From assembly GCA_025453395.1 (NCBI GenBank), contig JALOQK010000003.1:18711-82710 (forward strand): DNA of 64,000 bases, in the 5' to 3' direction. Shown one piece after another: positions 3,647-26,806 of the stretch (within the stretch, counting starts at the first letter, position 1; every line of letters begins with the position of its first letter). Both the position numbers and the translations under genes were made by a program. The DNA is from Candidatus Omnitrophota bacterium (GTDB lineage: Bacteria; Omnitrophota; Gorgyraeia; Gygaellales; Profunditerraquicolaceae). Under the pieces are notes generated by a model. That model saw only the letters and a program-made list of their open reading frames with translations. It did not search any database and was not told the DNA's origin.

Positions 3647-5490
3647 AATCTTATTTGGGCTGCGATTTGTTTTGGGCTTAATCCGTATTTATCTAGAAGC
3701 TCGGCTCTCTTGCCGCAAGGGATGAATTCATCGGGCAAGCCCATACGCTTAACCGGTTTGTCGATCTGCTCCATAACTAAAGAGCCAAAACCACCATCTA
3801 TAACGGCTTCTTCCAGGGTGCAAATTAAATTTACTGCACAGCTTAGTTTCTTTAAGGCTGGAGCGTCCAGCGGTTTTACAAAACGGGCATTGACCAATGT
3901 GCCGTTAATCCCATCTTTTTCCAATATCTTTACCGCCTCCCAAGCAGAATACACCATGCTGCCCAAGGCCACAAGAAGAAAATCTCTGCCAACAGACAAT
4001 ATTTCAGCTTTGCCGACTTCAAGCGCAGATAACGATGGTAAATTATCCGCAACCCATGACTTAGGATAACGAATAGCCACCGGTTTTTTTAGCCCGATTG
4101 CCAATTCCAACATCGCTTCAAGCTCCCTTGCATCCTTGGGAGCCATAACCACAAAATTAGGTATGCCCCTTAAGAAGGAAATGTCAAATATCCCCTGATG
4201 CGTTGGGCCGTCTTCTCCGACGATGCCTGCGCGATCAATAGCCAAAACCACTGCCGCCTCCTGCAAGCCGATGTCTTCGATTAACTGATCATAGGCGCGC
4301 TGTAAAAATGTAGAATATAAAGCCACAACCGGAACCAGCCCCTGTTTAGCTAAACCGGCGGCAAAACAAACCGCGTGTTGTTCGGCAATTCCCACGTCAA
4401 AGAATCTACCCGGAAAAGCATCGCGGAATTTATCAAGACCCGTTCCTTCAGGCATAGCAGCTGTGATAGCGATCAATTCGGGATGTTTCTGCGCAAGCTC
4501 CAGCATTTTGCCGCTAAAAACTTCTGTGTATGTTTTTCTTGGCTGCAAAAAGCCCGCCTGCGCCGGATTTCCGGTTGCCACATCAAATGGCCCTGTTCCG
4601 TGAAATCTTACCGGATCTTTCTCCGCCGGTAAGTAGCCTTTTCCTTTTTTGGTAACTACGTGTAAAAGGATCGGCCCTTTTATGGCTAAAATTTTCTTAA
4701 AAGCCGGGATCAAAGTGCCTAGATTGTGCCCGTCAAACGGGCCAAAATAACGAAAACCCATTTCTTCAAAAAACATCCCCGGGATAAACAACCCCTTAAG
4801 GGCCTCTTCAAACTTATTCACCAACCTTAACAAACGGCTTCCTTTAGGAAAACGCGATTTTATTAAGTTCTCTAAGGATTCATGAAAACGGTTGTAGACA
4901 GGCGTAGAAATAATCTTGTTCAGATAATTACTTATTGCTCCCACATTAGGGGCAATGCTCATCTCGTTTGTATTTAAAACAATGGCTATGTCTTTCTTAA
5001 TGTGCCCTGCGTTATTAAGCCCTTCGAAACATAAACCCCCGCTTAAAGACCCGTCTCCTATGACCGCGACTACTTTATATTGTTGGGGCGGATTCAGATT
5101 CTCGCGCGCCAAGGCCAGGCCCAAAGCAAGCGAAACTGCGCTAGAGCTGTGCCCGGTGGTAAAAGGGTCGCACCCTGATTCATTTTTGCAAGGAAACCCG
5201 CTTAATCCCTGAAATTTACGCAAAGAGGAAAAATCTTTATTTCTTCCGGTTAGTATTTTGTGCGCGTAGCTCTGGTGCCCGACATCCCAGATGATTTTAT
5301 CGCTTGGGACATCTAAACAATAATGCAAGGCTATGGCCAATTCTACGGCTCCCAGGCTTGAAGCTAAATGCCCGCCGTTGGCAGAAACCACTTCTAAGAT
5401 CCGGGACCTTATTTCTGAAGCTAATTCCGGAAGCTTAACCAGCGGCACCTGCTTTAAATCACCCGGGGAATTAATATTCTCTAAAAACAT
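3634..5490 (-). CDS. dxs: 1-deoxy-D-xylulose-5-phosphate synthase
   Basis: 618 aa with a transketolase-like TPP motif (GDG...N) and typical DXS N- and C-termini. Confidence 0.9.
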   Translation of the reverse strand: MFLENINSPGDLKQVPLVKLPELASEIRSRILEVVSANGGHLASSLGAVELAIALHYCLDVPSDKIIWDVGHQSYAHKILTGRNKDFSSLRKFQGLSGFPCKNESGCDPFTTGHSSSAVSLALGLALARENLNPPQQYKVVAVIGDGSLSGGLCFEGLNNAGHIKKDIAIVLNTNEMSIAPNVGAISNYLNKIISTPVYNRFHESLENLIKSRFPKGSRLLRLVNKFEEALKGLFIPGMFFEEMGFRYFGPFDGHNLGTLIPAFKKILAIKGPILLHVVTKKGKGYLPAEKDPVRFHGTGPFDVATGNPAQAGFLQPRKTYTEVFSGKMLELAQKHPELIAITAAMPEGTGLDKFRDAFPGRFFDVGIAEQHAVCFAAGLAKQGLVPVVALYSTFLQRAYDQLIEDIGLQEAAVVLAIDRAGIVGEDGPTHQGIFDISFLRGIPNFVVMAPKDARELEAMLELAIGLKKPVAIRYPKSWVADNLPSLSALEVGKAEILSVGRDFLLVALGSMVYSAWEAVKILEKDGINGTLVNARFVKPLDAPALKKLSCAVNLICTLEEAVIDGGFGSLVMEQIDKPVKRMGLPDEFIPCGKRAELLDKYGLSPKQIAAQIRLWLK

Positions 5491-22736: not shown

Positions 22737-24455
22737 TTACTGCTTGTTATTAATTTGTTCTTTGATTTTTATGATAAAATCCGCCAAGCTCATCGCGCCT
22801 AAATCTTTTTGCCCTCTCTGCCTGACAGAAACCTGCTTTTGTTCCTCTTCCCGCGCTCCTATAACCAGAATATAAGGGACCTTTTCCACTTCTTTCTGGC
22901 GGATGCGCTTATTTAAAGTTTCACTTCCAGAAACCAGTTCCGCGCGCAAAGAAATTTCTTCAAGCGCGCGTTTGACTTCTTGAGCATAACCTTCAAATAC
23001 CGCGTTAATCGGAACAATGGCTACCTGCACCGGCGCCAGCCACACCGGGAAAGCGCCAGCATAATGTTCGACAAGCGCGCCTAAGAATCTCTCTAAGCTA
23101 CCCAATAAGACGCGATGCAGCATGACCGGCTGCTTGGCCTGGCCATCCTGGTCTATATATTCTAAATTAAAGCGCTTAGGCAGCGCAAAATCACATTGTA
23201 TGGTAGCACATTGCCATTGCCGTTTCAAGGCATCTTTTAGCTTAATATCTATCTTTGGGCCATAAAAGGCTCCATCACCGGCATTAATAGTATAGGCCAG
23301 GCCTTTTTCCTTAAGCGCGTTCTCCAATCCTGCTGTTGCCTTGTCCCAATCTCCTTGCGTTCCGATAAATTTTTCCGGCTGGGTGCTTAATTCAATCTGT
23401 ATATCTGAAAATCCAAAGTCCTTCATGGTGTCAAAGACAAAATCTATGACCTTTTGAATCTCATCTTTGAGCTGTTCTGGCAGGCAAAAGATGTGCGCGT
23501 CATCTTGAGTAAACCCGCGCACGCGCAAAAGACCGTGCAAAACCCCTGCCTTCTCATGGCGATAAACTGTTCCCTGCTCAAAAAGCCGTAACGGCAAGTC
23601 GCGATAACTTCTGGTCTTGGATTTATAAATCAAAATATGCCCCGGACAATTCATCGGCTTTAAAACAAATTCTTTTTCCTCAATCTTAAAACAATACATG
23701 TTCTGCCGGTAATAATCATAATGCCCTGAGGTCTGCCAAAGGCCTGACTGCATAATATGCGGAGTCAAGACCATTTGATACCCGCGCGCCAAATGCGCGT
23801 TTTTCTCGTAATCTTCAATGATCCGGCGAAGAATTGCCCCCTTAGGCAAATAAAATACCAAGCCCGGGCCGGCATCTTCATAAAAGATATCGAAGAGCTC
23901 TAGCTGGGGCCCTAGCTTTCGATGGTCGCGCTTTTTCGCTTCTTCTAAATTCTTGAGATGTTCGTCTAATTCTTTTTGCGTCTGGAAGCAGGTGCCATAA
24001 ATCCTCTGCAGCATGGGGTTGGTTTCAATACCATGCCAATACGCACCTGCCACTGACAATAATTTAAAGGCCTTAATCTGCCCGGTTGAATCTATGTGCG
24101 GGCCGCGGCATAAATCTACGAAACTATTTCCTGTTTTGTAAATAGAGACCTTGTCCACATTCAAAGCCTTAATCAATTCCACCTTGTAATCTTCTTTACG
24201 CTGTTCAAAGAACTTTATTGCCTCAGCCGTATTTAATTCTTCTCTTATAAAAGGCTCATTCTTGGCAATGATCCGGCGCATAGATTCTTCGATCTTGGCC
24301 AAATCATCGTCGGTAAACGGCTCTTTTTTATCAAAATCATAATAAAACCCGTCCTCAATAGCCGGACCGATAGTAACCTTCGCCTGCGGCCAAAGCTCTT
24401 TTACCGCTTGGGCCATTACGTGAGAACAGGAATGCCGTAAAACCGATATGTCCAT
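22737..24455 (-). CDS. thrS: threonyl-tRNA synthetase (short form lacking the N-terminal TGS domain)
   Basis: 572 aa with class II catalytic and anticodon-binding domains. It starts within the second N-terminal domain (MDISVLRHSCSHVMAQA). The thrS-infC-rpmI-rplT order is conserved. Confidence 0.9.
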   Translation of the reverse strand: MDISVLRHSCSHVMAQAVKELWPQAKVTIGPAIEDGFYYDFDKKEPFTDDDLAKIEESMRRIIAKNEPFIREELNTAEAIKFFEQRKEDYKVELIKALNVDKVSIYKTGNSFVDLCRGPHIDSTGQIKAFKLLSVAGAYWHGIETNPMLQRIYGTCFQTQKELDEHLKNLEEAKKRDHRKLGPQLELFDIFYEDAGPGLVFYLPKGAILRRIIEDYEKNAHLARGYQMVLTPHIMQSGLWQTSGHYDYYRQNMYCFKIEEKEFVLKPMNCPGHILIYKSKTRSYRDLPLRLFEQGTVYRHEKAGVLHGLLRVRGFTQDDAHIFCLPEQLKDEIQKVIDFVFDTMKDFGFSDIQIELSTQPEKFIGTQGDWDKATAGLENALKEKGLAYTINAGDGAFYGPKIDIKLKDALKRQWQCATIQCDFALPKRFNLEYIDQDGQAKQPVMLHRVLLGSLERFLGALVEHYAGAFPVWLAPVQVAIVPINAVFEGYAQEVKRALEEISLRAELVSGSETLNKRIRQKEVEKVPYILVIGAREEEQKQVSVRQRGQKDLGAMSLADFIIKIKEQINNKQ

Positions 24456-24564
24456 AATAACTTTTCCTTAGCGTAAAGCTAAAAGCGCAAAATTAAAAAC
24501 CAAAATTAAAAATTTAAAGCTTTTTGGTTTTACGCTTTTCGCTTTACACTTTACGCTTTTTAAA
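24456..24564 (-). promoter_or_regulatory. thrS 5' leader with a long imperfect inverted repeat built from GTAAAG-type repeats
   Basis: Sense strand: aagcgtaaagtgtaaagcgaaaagcgtaaaacc, then a loop containing AAAGCTTT, then ggtttttaattttgcgcttttagctttacgct, then an AAGGAAAAG RBS and the ATG. No T-box motif was seen. Confidence 0.35.
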
Positions 24565-24641
24565 TGGTGGGCCCAAGAGGACTTGAACCTCTGGCCTTTG
24601 CGATGTCAACGCAACGCTCTAACCAACTGAGCTATGAGCCC
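24565..24641 (-). tRNA. tRNA-Val (anticodon GAC), CCA encoded
   Basis: Reverse complement GGGCTCATAGCTCAGTTGGTTAGAGCGTTGCGTTGACATCGCAAAGGCCAGAGGTTCAAGTCCTCTTGGGCCCACCA folds as a cloverleaf. The anticodon loop TTGACAT gives GAC. Confidence 0.85.
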
Positions 24642-24652
24642 TTGAACACCAA

Positions 24653-24782
24653 AATGTATCCGCCGAAGGCGGAAATTCAGTGAAACCTCGATGAGTGTGC
24701 CGAAATTTTAATTTTGAAAATTTCGGCACATCTTACGCATCGAGGCAACCTTCCAATGTATCCGCCGAAGGCGGAAATTCAG
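24653..24782 (-). repeat. composite structured repeat: two 28-nt direct repeats, each with a C(UUCG)G tetraloop hairpin, flanking a long hairpin
   Basis: DR aatgtatccgccgaaggcggaaattcag at 24653-24680 and 24755-24782 (sense strand: CTGAATTTCCGCC-TTCG-GGCGGATACATT). Between them, cctcgatg/catcgagg (24686-24693/24738-24745) encloses a 14 bp perfect IR tgtgccgaaatttt/aaaatttcggcaca (24696-24709/24717-24730). Confidence 0.5.
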
Positions 24783-24847
24783 CGAAACTCCGAGTTATAT
24801 CAATCCGCTTGCGGCGGATAGCTGTTAAAAACCGCTTCGTTAAAATT

Positions 24848-25048
24848 TTATTTTGATTCCCCTTTTTCAATGGCCTGGCTTCGAGCATTAAAGTTAGCTT
24901 GCGCCTGCCATGCCATCCATATCAACAATGCCAAGAAGACCACATTGGATATAAATACAAATTTACTCTTTTTGACCGTGTCGCGGATACCACGACGAAT
25001 AAAAATATGCAACACCAACACAAATATTAACGGAACAATTAAAGTCAT
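24848..25048 (-). CDS. hypothetical small membrane protein (2 predicted TM helices)
   Basis: 66 aa ORF between tRNA-Val and tRNA-Leu. It is hydrophobic (LIVPLIFVLVLHIF...FLALLIWMAW) and has no clear RBS. Confidence 0.25.
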   Translation of the reverse strand: MTLIVPLIFVLVLHIFIRRGIRDTVKKSKFVFISNVVFLALLIWMAWQAQANFNARSQAIEKGESK

Positions 25049-25086
25049 ACTTACATTGCCGCTGCTGTATCCTCGTTAAAATTTAA

Positions 25087-25169
25087 TGGGCAGGGAGGGA
25101 GTTGAACCCTCACGCTCTTGCAAGCGGGAGATTTTAAGTCTCCATTGTCTGCCATTCCAACACCTGCCC
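25087..25169 (-). tRNA. tRNA-Leu (anticodon TAA), type II with long variable arm, no encoded CCA
   Basis: Reverse complement GGGCAGGTGTTGGAATGGCAGACAATGGAGACTTAAAATCTCCCGCTTGCAAGAGCGTGAGGGTTCAACTCCCTCCCTGCCCA. The anticodon loop CTTAAAA gives TAA. Confidence 0.8.
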
Positions 25170-25188
25170 AAAATTTTTAAGAACAAAG

Positions 25189-25845
25189 CTAAATAACTGT
25201 TTTACTCTTACCCCAGCCCACAGATGCATTAATGCATTCTTGGGCTAATTTTATTTTTCTTTCCAAACCAAAACAGTTTTTATAATAACATTGCGCAACA
25301 ATTTTTCTTGCAGCCATTTTGCCATATTTCAACACCCACACATTGCCTGCACTCTTGTGCGTCCTGCCTCGGGCCAACAATAATTTCTCTACTGTACTCC
25401 TTAACCAATGAATAAATTTTGGAGAGCCGGAATAAATTCTTAAACTCCACTGCTCTCTATTATTAGATGGATGCACCCAGCTACGGATACTTCCGTCTCC
25501 ATCAATTAAGCCGCGCAAGAAATCAACAAAGAACTTTTCAGGAACATCCAGATTACCTAAACTTAAAGACTTATTCGGCTTTAATCCTATTGCAACTAAA
25601 AATTCATAAAGGTTCTTATTTGAGAATTGTAAATAATAAGCCTGATTAGGCCTTTCTTTATTTTTAGTTCCGATTTTATTCTTCAAGCCTAGGGCATTTT
25701 TTAATTTATCCAGAAACCCATAATCTTTAGAAGTAATATCTATGTGCCTTTTATCCCCGGATAGACAGCCGTCGCTTGTAACCAACCCCACTAAATACCA
25801 AAGATCAGATCCGCCGATATTTAATTCTTTTCTTTTATTCGGCAT
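25189..25845 (-). CDS. single-chain LAGLIDADG homing endonuclease (two LAGLIDADG motifs), free-standing between tRNA genes
   Basis: 218 aa intact ORF with motif 1 LWYLVGLVTSDGCL and motif 2 FLRGLIDGDGSI about 95 residues apart, which is double-motif monomeric architecture. It is not embedded in an obviously interrupted host gene: the flanking tRNA-Leu and tRNA-Cys are intact. Confidence 0.7.
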   Translation of the reverse strand: MPNKRKELNIGGSDLWYLVGLVTSDGCLSGDKRHIDITSKDYGFLDKLKNALGLKNKIGTKNKERPNQAYYLQFSNKNLYEFLVAIGLKPNKSLSLGNLDVPEKFFVDFLRGLIDGDGSIRSWVHPSNNREQWSLRIYSGSPKFIHWLRSTVEKLLLARGRTHKSAGNVWVLKYGKMAARKIVAQCYYKNCFGLERKIKLAQECINASVGWGKSKTVI

Positions 25846-26187
25846 GCAACTTTACCTCAGATACTCCGCTCGCTATTTTGTTTGTCGCCCCTTGCCTAAA
25901 CGCTTGTAAATTTTCTAACCGTAGTATTCCAGATACTCCGCTCGCTACTCGGCTTGTCGCAAAACTTAAGTTTTTGCCCCTCGCCAAAGCACTCGAAAAT
26001 TCTTTCGCCTCGCTCAATAATTTTCTTCGCTGGCTTCGGGGTGAATTTCCATACTGGCGATAGCGAGGAAATTCTAAGGCGACGAGCGGATTCTCCCGAC
26101 GTTCACCTTCGGTTCAGTCGGGATCCCGCTGTATTTTACAAGTCGTGCGGGAGAACCGCTGTTACCGCTATTTAAAAAGAACTCTAA
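25846..26187 (-). other. about 340 bp structured non-coding region upstream of the LAGLIDADG ORF with two 18-nt direct repeats
   Basis: DR cagatactccgctcgcta at 25858-25875 and 25930-25947. Multiple stem-loops on the sense strand, e.g. CTCCCGC...GCGGGA and CCCGAC-tgaaccgaaggtgaac-GTCGGG. No long ORF on the tRNA strand. Confidence 0.3.
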
Positions 26188-26259
26188 AGGCGTGGACCGG
26201 ATTTGAACCGGTGAATAACTGTTTTGCAGACAGTTGCCTTACCGCTTGGCTACCACGCC
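26188..26259 (-). tRNA. tRNA-Cys (anticodon GCA), no encoded CCA
   Basis: Reverse complement GGCGTGGTAGCCAAGCGGTAAGGCAACTGTCTGCAAAACAGTTATTCACCGGTTCAAATCCGGTCCACGCCT. The anticodon loop CTGCAAA gives GCA. Confidence 0.8.
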
Positions 26260-26263
26260 AAAA

Positions 26264-26806
26264 TTATAATAATCTTTTTACTTCTTTTATTATCTCTTCA
26301 ACGCCAGCCAAGCAGCCTAAACCTTTTTTGCCGCAGGCCAAATTTCCTTCAACTGGCCCGATAAATTTATACCCTACTGTCTTTAACTTCTTAATATTAT
26401 CCTGCACGATTTTATTTTGATACATCTTGGTATTCATCGCCGCGGCAATTAAAACCGGCGCATTGCTTGCTATAACCGTACAGCTTAAAAGATCGTCACA
26501 GATCCCGTTGGCAAGCTTCCCGATAATATTTGCGGTTGCCGGGGCAATCAAAATCAAATCCGCTTTCTCGGCCAAAGAAATATGCTCTATTTCCCAGACA
26601 CGGTCGGAATTAAACATTTCCGTATAAACTTTATTAAAGCTAACCGCCTCAAATAAAGCTGGGCGGATCAATTCTTTCGCCTCTTGGGTCATTACCACCG
26701 TAACGCCAAAATTATTTTCCCGCAGGCGGCGCACCAAATCGCAGGCTTTATAAATCGCCACACTTGCGGTAACCCCTAAAATGATTTGCTTCTTTTCTTT
26801 TGGCAT
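26264..26806 (-). CDS. coaC: phosphopantothenoylcysteine decarboxylase (stand-alone CoaC flavoprotein domain)
   Basis: 180 aa beginning ILGVTASVAIYKACDLVRRL, with ILIAPATANIIGKLANGICDDLLS and the PAMN-like motif AAMNTKMY. No CoaB domain is present. Confidence 0.7.
   Translation of the reverse strand: MPKEKKQIILGVTASVAIYKACDLVRRLRENNFGVTVVMTQEAKELIRPALFEAVSFNKVYTEMFNSDRVWEIEHISLAEKADLILIAPATANIIGKLANGICDDLLSCTVIASNAPVLIAAAMNTKMYQNKIVQDNIKKLKTVGYKFIGPVEGNLACGKKGLGCLAGVEEIIKEVKRLL

Follow-up and report, generated by a model that had tools for sequence, protein, structure and literature searches.

Free-standing homing endonucleases and intronless or trans homing are known mainly from T4-like phages. 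The phage T4 enzyme SegB, of the GIY-YIG family, is encoded in a tRNA gene cluster; it recognises a 27-bp site containing the conserved T-psi-C stem-loop motif of a tRNA gene and spreads its own ORF together with surrounding tRNA genes (PMC2330249). The pathway followed by SegB and the other Seg/Mob endonucleases, intronless homing with marker exclusion, is described in PMC3984707, as is collaborative or trans homing, of which F-CphI with the psbA intron of cyanophage and T4 mobE with the I-TevIII intron are the known cases, both in phage. Bacterial LAGLIDADG genes, in contrast, are usually reported inside introns, inteins or rRNA insertions. In CPR/Patescibacteria they occur within rRNA insertion sequences and introns (PMC11270868), and HEG-bearing tRNA introns have been described (PMC13011429); a recent survey of tRNA introns found that most lack endonuclease genes, but it looked for ORFs only within introns, so that an endonuclease gene lying just upstream of the tRNA would not have been counted. 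The monomeric double-motif enzymes of the I-DmoI/I-Tsp061I type are archaeal rRNA-intron enzymes, single chains of about 200–220 residues with two LAGLIDADG helices, each ending in a catalytic Asp, and two alpha-beta-beta-alpha-beta-beta-alpha halves. The domesticated bacterial protein WhiA is chromosomal and vertically conserved, but has lost the catalytic acidic residues and carries a C-terminal HTH domain.

Here, we analyse a locus in a 64,000-nt stretch (hereafter the window) of an Omnitrophota contig. As in the SegB case, a free-standing gene lies in a tRNA cluster and its family appears to cut a tRNA gene and to drag tRNA sequence along, but the nuclease family is a different one, the hosts are cellular chromosomes of several phyla and one address, tRNA-Leu(UAA), is kept over very deep divergence. 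Five relatives have the layout of collaborative homing with tRNA-Leu(UAA), although the tRNA-Leu of the window has no intron. The enzyme superfamily is that found in CPR/Patescibacteria, the same kind of ultra-small uncultured bacteria, but there the enzymes are encoded inside the insertion or intron. The protein resembles I-Tsp061I in length, motifs and predicted fold at only about 20% identity, and differs from WhiA in keeping both Asp residues, in having no extra domain and in being polymorphic for presence and absence.

Results

ARAGORN and Rfam place tRNA-Val(GAC) at 24565–24641, tRNA-Leu(UAA) at 25086–25170 (Rfam 50.5 bits) and tRNA-Cys(GCA) at 26188–26259 (Rfam 70.2 bits; acceptor type GGCGTGG/CCACGCC), all on the minus strand and with the Leu and Cys genes uninterrupted. 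Between the latter two, an uninterrupted 218-residue ORF with its own ATG and stop codon occupies 25189–25845 (minus strand), separated from tRNA-Leu by an 18-nt AT-rich spacer (25171–25188). The gene thrS (22737–24455) lies downstream of the conserved Cys-Leu-Val cluster, and the ORFs that follow it read as infC, rpmI and rplT on inspection of their sequences. The preliminary description of this locus as an intact, free-standing, double-motif LAGLIDADG gene inside a tRNA cluster is therefore confirmed.

The protein matches the Pfam family PF14528 (LAGLIDADG_3; E 2.2e-13, 50.7 bits against a cut-off of 22.5), whereas PF00961 falls below threshold and PF03161 does not match; WhiA appears only as a weak Pfam hit and NCBIfam has no model for the protein. 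The two motifs are YLVGLVTSDG (residues 17–26) and FLRGLIDGDG (residues 109–118), with the acidic residues D25 and D117 present. The AlphaFold model (pLDDT 87, pTM 0.87) shows two alpha-beta-beta-alpha-beta-beta-alpha halves, the element order expected for the pseudo-dimeric fold, and no further domain. Its best PDB match in both sequence and fold is I-Tsp061I (PDB code 2dch; profile E 1.2e-10; Foldseek E 1.5e-11, TM 0.68–0.73), and the top 50 matches are all LAGLIDADG-fold proteins, comprising homing endonucleases and engineered meganucleases together with WhiA (PDB code 3hyi), the bI3 maturase and inteins.

More than 480 homologues were found, the best 120 of which are 58–73% identical and nearly all full length, and at least 176 species-representative genomes encode relatives (Omnitrophota, Patescibacteria and others). 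We fetched 80 loci with relatives (loci, including those without the ORF, are designated L followed by a number). In about 75 of these 80, tRNA-Leu(UAA) starts 0–15 nt after the stop codon or overlaps the end of the ORF. A tRNA-Cys lies upstream in about 65 of 80, usually forming the left border of the insertion, and lies 5–24 nt upstream in 39 of 72. About 20 of 80 ORFs lack a stop codon before the tRNA, which is odd for an efficiently expressed gene; the idea that incomplete stop codons are completed after tRNA excision did not hold, since the reading phase at the tRNA border is not consistently T or TA. The arrangement also holds in Patescibacteria, Armatimonadota, Bdellovibrionales and Elusimicrobia loci that share no other synteny. 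IMG/VR holds only relatives at 37% identity or less, so a phage vector is not supported.

The Gly-Cys-Leu(UAA) order without the ORF is widespread and is found in E. coli as glyW-cysT-leuZ. At least nine metagenome contigs (L107, L109, L119, L144, L161, L169, L178, L181 and L196) carry the order ndk-yicC-gmk-rpoZ-coaC-Cys-[5–29 nt]-Leu-Val-thrS, with ThrS 64–76% identical to that of the window but no ORF. Empty alleles include those of the L169/L196 type (GGGCAAGTGGTGGAATGGCATACAC…) and of the L100 type (GCCGGGATGGCGGAATTGGCAGACGC…). This presence/absence comparison is between species only: the nearest empty and filled pairs are 75–80% identical in flanking DNA and no within-species polymorphism was seen.

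The divergence of the ORF is decoupled from that of its flanks in both directions. HEG and ThrS identities correlate only at r 0.54. L039 and L048 have flanks 80–90% identical in DNA but an ORF only 45–69% identical. The ORF has dS of 0.25–0.43 against 0.93–1.76 in the flanks in some pairs (in L020/L023, 0.25 against 0.93–1.47), whereas the reverse is seen in others, such as L007/L020, in which the ORF has dS 2.3 and dN 0.26 against flank dS of 0.24–0.86 and dN of 0.01–0.05. The catalytic Asp residues are kept in 77/78 and 78/78 sequences, 74/81 ORFs are intact and dN/dS is 0.05–0.28 (0.11–0.12 for the window against L001 and L002).

Fragments of tRNA genes are found at several junctions. Stumps of the 5' part of a different tRNA-Leu, ending at positions 20–29, sit at the ATG in L002, L036, L016, L008, L017 and L037, and 3' stumps, starting from position ~56, sit behind the complete tRNA-Leu in L013 and L019. 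Comparison of the orthologous empty L100 with the filled L037 and L017 shows that the inserted block is the ORF plus a complete foreign tRNA-Leu. A stump in L071 (positions 1–33) was also considered as a break marker, but it ends in GGACT|CAGCC, like the exon 1–intron junctions of the intron-bearing loci, and was set aside. The D-arm 12-mer TGGCATACACGA is present in 6/9 empty but 0/22 filled GGGC-type alleles; however, L046 is HEG+ and yet keeps this D-arm sequence, and the HEG-less L178 has the same tRNA-Leu as the HEG+ L033. The tRNA-Leu of the window (sequence type GGGCAGGTGTTGGAATGGCAGACAA…) lacks the 12-mer and clusters with those of L001, L003, L010, L023, L031 and L044. Similarity of tRNA-Leu does not track that of the HEG once host relatedness is controlled (partial Mantel r 0.04, p 0.25), and L013, L020 and L023 have 85–88% identical enzymes next to three different tRNA-Leu types; the tRNA is therefore not always co-transferred. 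tRNA-Val is also diverse in this phylum, so tRNA turnover is not specific to the neighbour of the HEG.

In five other genomes (L065, L066, L282, L283 and L285) the relative sits directly upstream of a tRNA-Leu(UAA) that carries an RF00028 group I intron (63–77 bits); the ORF lies outside the intron, upstream of exon 1. In the window, no Rfam intron, ribozyme or leader family matched 24400–26400 even at E<=10, and the only hits above the gathering scores, there and across the whole window, were the three tRNAs. The same held for the odd tRNA-Cys region of L034.

The 342-nt spacer 25846–26187 has no credible ORF, contains direct repeats and folds only modestly better than shuffled sequence (z -2.4); most relatives have only 5–24 nt here. 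It resolves into two lineage-specific parts, both on the minus strand. The first (26077–26162) is a decayed 3' part of a second tRNA-Cys (variable loop, T arm and acceptor 3' strand), whose allele (…GAATCCGCTCGTCGCCT) differs from the resident tRNA-Cys and whose T loop is interrupted by two hairpins (TCCCGC…GCGGGA and TCCCGAC…GTCGGGA). BLAST of a tRNA panel gave a 17/17 match to positions 56–72 of the tRNA-Cys of L002, and the same arrangement occurs in L055 and L011. RNAalifold on these remnants from the window, L055, L011 and L005 found only the second hairpin to be shared, with one compensatory pair, and we do not claim a conserved structured RNA. The second part (25846–26076) is the 5' leader, in which hairpin 1 (26076–26040, GAATTTCC…GGAAATTC) is followed by duplicated SD-sequestering hairpin modules containing GGCGAGGGGC/GGCAAGGGGC and AGCGAGCGGAGTATCTG, with a Shine-Dalgarno GAGG at 25858–25855, 9 nt before the ATG. 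The leaders of L001, L019, L034, L036, L045 and L049 share hairpin 1 and a CCCC-GA-GC…GC-GA-GGGG hairpin that sequesters the SD. The latter rests on single-sequence folds and inspection, as a MAFFT alignment of seven simple leaders aligned the 3' arm poorly.

Discussion

The interpretation offered in the preliminary description is partly supported. The link to tRNA-Leu(UAA), the classic cyanobacterial group I intron host, is real and is the key feature of the locus. The suggestion that the 5' flank is a ribozyme or intron core is not supported, nor is domestication of the enzyme. Co-transcription with the tRNAs is plausible, since the spacings of 5–9 nt and 0–15 nt in most loci leave no room for separate signals, and expression would most likely be by read-through from the tRNA operon; a scan for sigma-70 promoters and terminators found no more sites than in shuffled sequence and says nothing about transcription units.

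We propose that the ORF is a free-standing homing endonuclease gene whose family has a fixed address immediately 5' of tRNA-Leu(UAA), which in most bacteria is the short spacer of the ancient tRNA-Cys(GCA)-tRNA-Leu(UAA) pair, and we hold this reading with a probability of about 0.8. The analysis itself establishes that the family is present or absent at this one site in otherwise syntenic Omnitrophota genomes, that it occurs at the same site in other phyla, that it keeps both catalytic aspartates under purifying selection and that its synonymous divergence is decoupled from that of the flanking housekeeping genes, so that it has repeatedly moved or been replaced horizontally at this locus. The mechanism is an inference, as is cleavage itself, which in LAGLIDADG enzymes is directed to long targets (about 18–22 bp) and leaves 4-nt 3' overhangs. 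In this view, the enzyme would make a double-strand break in HEG-less alleles and repair from a HEG-bearing allele would copy the ORF in, together with flanking tRNA sequence and, in several documented cases, a complete foreign tRNA-Leu(UAA). The scars, on which alone the target is inferred, would place the break inside the resident tRNA-Leu gene, roughly between positions 29 and 56 (anticodon/variable arm), with D-arm differences possibly giving immunity; the tRNA-Leu of the window would then be a variant that its own enzyme does not cut. This interval contains the anticodon loop, where the intron sits in the intron-bearing subclade, although any coincidence with the cut site is only indirectly suggested. 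That subclade has the architecture of collaborative/trans homing.

Other readings were weighed against this one. It is possible, but unlikely, that the same mobile enzyme recognises the uninterrupted junction of the tRNA-Cys 3' end, spacer and tRNA-Leu 5' end, with the ORF alone as the mobile unit and the tRNA stumps as by-products of occasional illegitimate repair. In the commonest architecture the ORF sits 5–9 nt after tRNA-Cys, the right-hand spacer (AATTTAGTC and similar) resembles the spacer of empty alleles (AATTTC, AGTTTTAAC), there is no global co-inheritance of HEG and tRNA-Leu, and foreign tRNA-Cys 3' pieces lie directly upstream of the ATG in L055, L011, L077 and, further upstream, in the window. 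However, empty-site spacers vary from 2 to 29 nt in length and in sequence, a poor basis for a ~20-bp site spanning the junction, the gene keeps its position next to tRNA-Leu when tRNA-Cys is elsewhere (L016–L018, L024, L033, L037, L039, L048 and L053), and resident tRNA-Leu genes are truncated at positions 20–29 at the insertion.

A domesticated, vertically inherited protein with a host function tied to the tRNA operon, such as DNA or RNA binding, regulation or help with tRNA-Leu maturation, appears less likely still. The 55–73% identity across the phylum, similar to that of ThrS and CoaC, the low dN/dS, the intact ORFs, the conserved synteny and the positive correlation of HEG and host distances would all fit such a function, but HEG-less alleles nest among HEG+ relatives, dS of the ORF is 4–6 times lower, or several times higher, than that of its flanks in close host pairs, the same insertion site is used in unrelated phyla without shared synteny, and both Asp residues are retained. 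Least likely is a relic of a group I intron, for example one from tRNA-Leu(UAA), that lost its ribozyme core: relatives do sit beside intron-containing tRNA-Leu(UAA) genes, the closest solved structures are intron-encoded enzymes and the 5' flank is rich in hairpins, but the absence of any intron match, the position of the ORF outside the intron in the intron-bearing loci, the composition of the flank and its absence from most relatives, and the uninterrupted tRNA-Leu and tRNA-Cys of the window all speak against it.

A bolder and tentative extension, which we regard as less probable than not, is that the family is a cross-phylum tRNA-Leu(UAA) killer-and-replacer. The endonuclease would cut the resident gene in or near the anticodon arm, the classical group I intron site, and spread together with an immune allele, either a sequence variant or an intron-containing copy, thereby driving wholesale turnover of an essential tRNA gene and supplying in trans the long-missing mobility function for the ORF-less tRNA-Leu(UAA) group I intron. 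We found no description of the arrangement itself, one LAGLIDADG family kept immediately 5' of tRNA-Leu(UAA) across phyla, in the literature searched, although that coverage is incomplete. If the homing explanation holds, tRNA genes in these little-known phyla are recombination hot spots shaped by a selfish nuclease, the ORF-less tRNA-Leu(UAA) group I intron has a candidate mobilising enzyme encoded just outside it, and the family offers many natural, compact meganuclease variants whose targets lie in a highly conserved sequence.

Window-specific insertions

The copy in the window is atypical not only in its leader but also in the Leu-Val spacer (24642–25085, minus strand), which is 3–15 nt in many relatives. 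The expansion holds a 66-residue sORF (25048–24848), for which NCBIfam has no model and which is found in none of the 80 related loci, bracketed by 15-nt direct repeats (25073–25087 and 24837–24851). It also holds two 39-nt repeats with a GC hairpin (24653–24691 and 24755–24793); their 25-nt core occurs only twice in the window and in none of 200 loci, and one copy scores as terminator-like.

Organization of the locus

On the minus strand, the locus comprises a coaC-like gene (26806-26264), tRNA-Cys(GCA) (26259-26188), a 342-nt ORF-less spacer, an ORF encoding 218 residues (25845-25189), 18 nt of spacer, tRNA-Leu(UAA) (25170-25086), a 444-nt spacer, tRNA-Val(GAC) (24641-24565) and thrS (24455-22737). 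The ORF matches the Pfam family LAGLIDADG_3 (E value of 2.2e-13) and carries two motifs, each ending in Asp-Gly. The AlphaFold model is confident (pLDDT of 87) and displays a two-lobed α-β-β-α-β-β-α fold, with I-Tsp061I and I-DmoI-type enzymes as its best solved relatives. A search with Rfam identified the three tRNAs but no intron or ribozyme, even at E<=10. An identical protein is on record from a Candidatus Omnitrophica MAG. The preliminary description of a free-standing double-motif LAGLIDADG gene within a tRNA island is therefore confirmed. Its interpretation is only partly supported: the association with tRNA-Leu(UAA) holds, whereas the suggested ribozyme or intron remnant in the 5' flank and the suggested domestication do not find support.

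A family with a fixed genomic address

A protein search returned 486 homologs, the best 120 of which are 58-73% identical, nearly all full length (three cover 92-96% of the query), 202-271 residues long and mostly from Omnitrophota. An exhaustive profile search found 146 clusters (at 50% identity) with E<=1e-30. A scan of one genome per species gave 176 genomes with a relative, and 80 loci were fetched (loci and contigs are denoted here by numbers prefixed with L). In about 75 of these, tRNA-Leu(UAA) begins 0-15 nt after the stop codon or the ORF runs into it. In 39 of 72, tRNA-Cys(GCA) ends 24 nt or less before the ATG, and in 18 only 5-9 nt before. The arrangement also holds in loci from Patescibacteria, Armatimonadota, Bdellovibrionales and Elusimicrobia that share nothing else with the window, and where tRNA-Cys is elsewhere (L016-L018, L024, L037, L039 and L048) the ORF stays with tRNA-Leu. 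Several records titled 'uncultured Planctomycetales/Planctomycetia' or 'Deltaproteobacteria' (L004, L015, L025, L032, L033, L035, L040, L046 and others) carry the full Omnitrophota synteny and Omnitrophota-like proteins around the locus; these taxonomic labels look unreliable. The order Gly(GCC)-Cys(GCA)-Leu(UAA) without any ORF is common in metagenomes and is also that of the glyW-cysT-leuZ operon of E. coli; the ORF is therefore an insertion into an ancient tRNA pair.

Mobility versus domestication

Several features would fit a host gene. In Omnitrophota the block ndk-yicC-gmk-rpoZ-coaC-[Cys-ORF-Leu-Val]-thrS is conserved, the ORF is about as conserved as ThrS or CoaC, dN/dS is 0.05-0.28, 74 of 81 copies are intact and both catalytic Asp residues are kept (in 77/78 and 78/78 sequences). 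However, a metagenome scan for a tRNA-Cys 3' end, N0-30 and a tRNA-Leu 5' end returned contigs with the same Omnitrophota synteny and with ThrS 64-76% identical to that of the window, as close as the closest filled loci, in which only 5-29 nt separate the two tRNAs (L107, L109, L119, L144, L161, L169, L178, L181 and L196). The flanks of these empty alleles are 75-80% identical to filled loci such as L023, L020 and L007. HEG and ThrS distances correlate only moderately (r of 0.54), with striking outliers: L039 and L048 have ThrS 91% identical and flanking DNA 80-90% identical, but ORF DNA only 45-69% identical. Synonymous sites are likewise decoupled from the flanks (ndk, gmk, coaC and thrS) in both directions. 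For L020/L023 the HEG dS is 0.25 against 0.93-1.47 in the flanks and for L013/L023 it is 0.43 against 1.19-1.76, whereas for L007/L020 the HEG dS is 2.3 and dN 0.26 against flank values of 0.24-0.86 and 0.01-0.05, respectively. The ORF is thus sometimes much younger and sometimes much older than the DNA around it.

Retention of the catalytic residues, presence or absence at one site and horizontal replacement at that site together make the signature of a homing endonuclease gene cycling through a lineage, a reading to which we assign a probability of roughly 0.8; domestication appears unlikely. The family membership, the fixed address, the empty alleles and the decoupled divergence are direct results of the sequence comparisons, whereas DNA cleavage, the position of the break and the mode of expression are inferred.

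Inferred position of the break

The target can be inferred only from scars. Six filled loci carry a 5' stump of a tRNA-Leu directly at or a few nucleotides before the ATG, ending at positions 20 (L036, L016), 22 (L037), 24 (L002), 26 (L008) and 29 (L017), and in each case the complete tRNA-Leu downstream has a different sequence type. In L002, L036 and L016 the start codon is the ATG of the tRNA D loop (GGAATGGCA). L013 and L019 carry a 3' stump (from about position 56) right behind the complete tRNA-Leu, and the L013 stump equals the 3' end of the tRNA-Leu found in the related empty alleles L169, L196 and L181.

The clearest case is an orthologous comparison with L100, a HEG-less Omnitrophota-like contig that carries two different tRNA-Leu(UAA) genes at 1049-1641 in the order Cys-Leu(GGGCGAG type)-Val-…-Leu(GCCGGGA type)-thrS. 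The second copy, which is the one disrupted by the endonuclease cassette in L017 and L037, reads …gggagcttaaac-[tRNA-Leu GCCGGGATGGCGGAATTGGCAGACGCAAGGGA…]-thrS in L100, whereas L037 reads …gggagcttaatc-GCCGGGATGGCGGAATTGGCAG|gaaacac-ATG…ORF…TAA-catatattt-[complete, different tRNA-Leu]-thrS. Here, the incoming block was a few nucleotides, the ORF, about 9 nt and a whole foreign tRNA-Leu, and it replaced the resident gene from about position 23 to its end. As resection can only shorten a stump, the break should lie between about positions 29 and 56, in the anticodon or variable arm. Within GGGC-type tRNA-Leu genes, the D-arm 12-mer TGGCATACACGA is present in six of nine empty alleles and in 0 of 22 filled ones, suggesting that the recognition site extends into the D arm.

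However, a partial Mantel test finds no general co-inheritance of HEG and tRNA-Leu (r of 0.04, p of 0.25), nearly identical enzymes (L013, L020 and L023) sit by different tRNA-Leu types, L046 and L178 are exceptions to the D-arm pattern and all three tRNAs are diverse in this phylum. A target inside tRNA-Leu is proposed only tentatively, at slightly less than even odds; a target spanning the Cys-Leu junction is less likely but possible.

Association with a group I intron

In the filled loci L065 and L066, the two halves of tRNA-Leu lie about 270-290 nt apart and Rfam finds a group I intron between them (77 and 65 bits, respectively). A search with the L066 enzyme was followed by inspection of four of its closest relatives, three of which (L282, L283 and L285) again have an RF00028 intron (63-75 bits) beginning 25-33 nt after the stop codon. 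The flanking exons read GCCCGGGTGG…GGGACT | intron | TAAAATCCC…, placing the insertion in these five loci between U33 and U34 rather than at the textbook 34/35 position; ARAGORN does not call these tRNAs at all. The introns are 230-270 nt in length and have no ORF. A free-standing endonuclease gene beside an ORF-less intron in its neighbor gene is the layout described for collaborative or trans homing (PMC3984707). A rough NJ tree places these enzymes in a basal grade between the Patescibacteria and Omnitrophota clades, a topology on which no conclusion is based. A 2026 survey concluded that most bacterial tRNA introns lack endonuclease genes, so that transfer is limited, but looked for ORFs only inside introns (PMC13011429).

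In the Elusimicrobia locus L071, the 3' end of the ORF overlaps a tRNA-Leu 5' fragment (4618-4651; tRNA positions 1-33) that ends in GGACT|CAGCC, as seen at the exon 1-intron junctions of the intron-bearing loci. This fragment, 80 nt upstream of the current intact tRNA-Leu, may be a relic of a former intron-containing gene.

Comparison with known systems

The motifs, catalytic residues and predicted fold identify the protein as a member of the LAGLIDADG family, with its cleavage activity inferred. As a genetic element, it would work like the free-standing Seg and Mob endonucleases of T4. The closest parallel is SegB, which lies in a tRNA cluster, recognizes a tRNA T-ψ-C motif and spreads neighboring tRNA genes (PMC2330249). 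The present family differs from SegB in the nuclease family, in its residence in cellular chromosomes and in one address being kept across phyla. No description of this arrangement was found in the literature, within the limits of the collection searched. The finding would gain in interest if the tRNA-Leu target and the trans-mobilization of the intron are confirmed.

Leader and expression

The 342-nt spacer upstream of the ORF is atypical for the family and has two parts. The first (26162-26077) is the 3' portion of a tRNA-Cys whose acceptor strand (CGTCGCC) does not match that of the resident tRNA-Cys (CCACGCC) and whose T loop is split by two hairpins. L055 and L011 have the same kind of piece directly before their ATG, but only one hairpin is shared, with one compensatory pair, and we read this part as a decayed flank carried in with a past insertion. 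The second part (26076-25846) is a leader. About a dozen loci, including L001, L019, L034, L036, L045, L049 and L054, share an AT-rich hairpin right after the tRNA, followed by a hairpin CCCC-GA-GC…GC-GA-GGGG with tandem G·A mismatches, the 3' arm of which contains the Shine-Dalgarno sequence (GAGGGG). The closing pairs, as judged from single-sequence folds and inspection, vary in a compensatory way (CCCC/GGGG, TCTC/GGGA and ATCTC/GAGAT). The window has the first hairpin, two copies of the GGGG module (direct repeats) and a GAGG 9 nt before the ATG. Sequestering the ribosome-binding site would plausibly limit synthesis of a nuclease, and this small conserved leader may be a translational brake.

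With 5-9 nt before the ATG and 0-15 nt after the stop codon in most loci, the ORF is inferred to be transcribed with the tRNAs, and would be released, or destroyed, by tRNA processing. About 20 of the 80 ORFs (L002, L014, L026, L027, L029, L031, L034, L046, L049, L051, L052, L055, L057, L063, L067-L069, L072, L076 and L080) have no in-frame stop codon before tRNA-Leu and read 13-170 nt into the tRNA gene; in L027 and L029 the stop codon is the TAA anticodon itself. Expression of these ORFs would depend on unprocessed transcripts or would yield non-stop mRNAs.

Other features of the tRNA cluster

In L077 (2750-2985), L034 (3637-3922) and L052 (3646-3900), and also in L005 (~3890-3990), a tRNA-Cys is split exactly after G34 of the anticodon (…GGTCTG | insert | CAAAACC…). 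The insert is 165-250 nt in length, has conserved ends (5' TGCCTCGACTT…, 3' …GGCGAGKCGAAGGA) and contains a second, complete tRNA-Cys. The outer halves still form matching acceptor stems, which differ between loci (GGCGCGG/CCGCGCC, GGCGACG/CGTCGCC and GGCGGCA/TGCCGCC). No Rfam family matches, and the insert could be an intron with a nested tRNA, a small mobile cassette or a repair scar.

A long AT-rich inverted repeat (24470-24557; 36-nt arms, 78% complementary) lies between tRNA-Val and the thrS start codon and gives spurious microRNA-precursor hits in Rfam; it may be a thrS leader or terminator. The Leu-Val spacer, with its sORF and repeats, is unique to this genome. The hydrophobic 66-residue sORF lies in a segment of about 236 nt bracketed by 15-nt direct repeats (24837-25087; TCGTTAAAATTTTAT / TCGTTAAAATTTAAT on the plus strand) and is absent from all related loci; it looks like a small lineage-specific insertion rather than a conserved gene. 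Two 39-nt direct repeats (24653-24691 and 24755-24793), each with a GC hairpin (TCCGCCTTCGGCGGA), occur nowhere else in the 64-kb window nor in 200 fetched loci, and the copy next to tRNA-Val scores as an intrinsic-terminator-like site.
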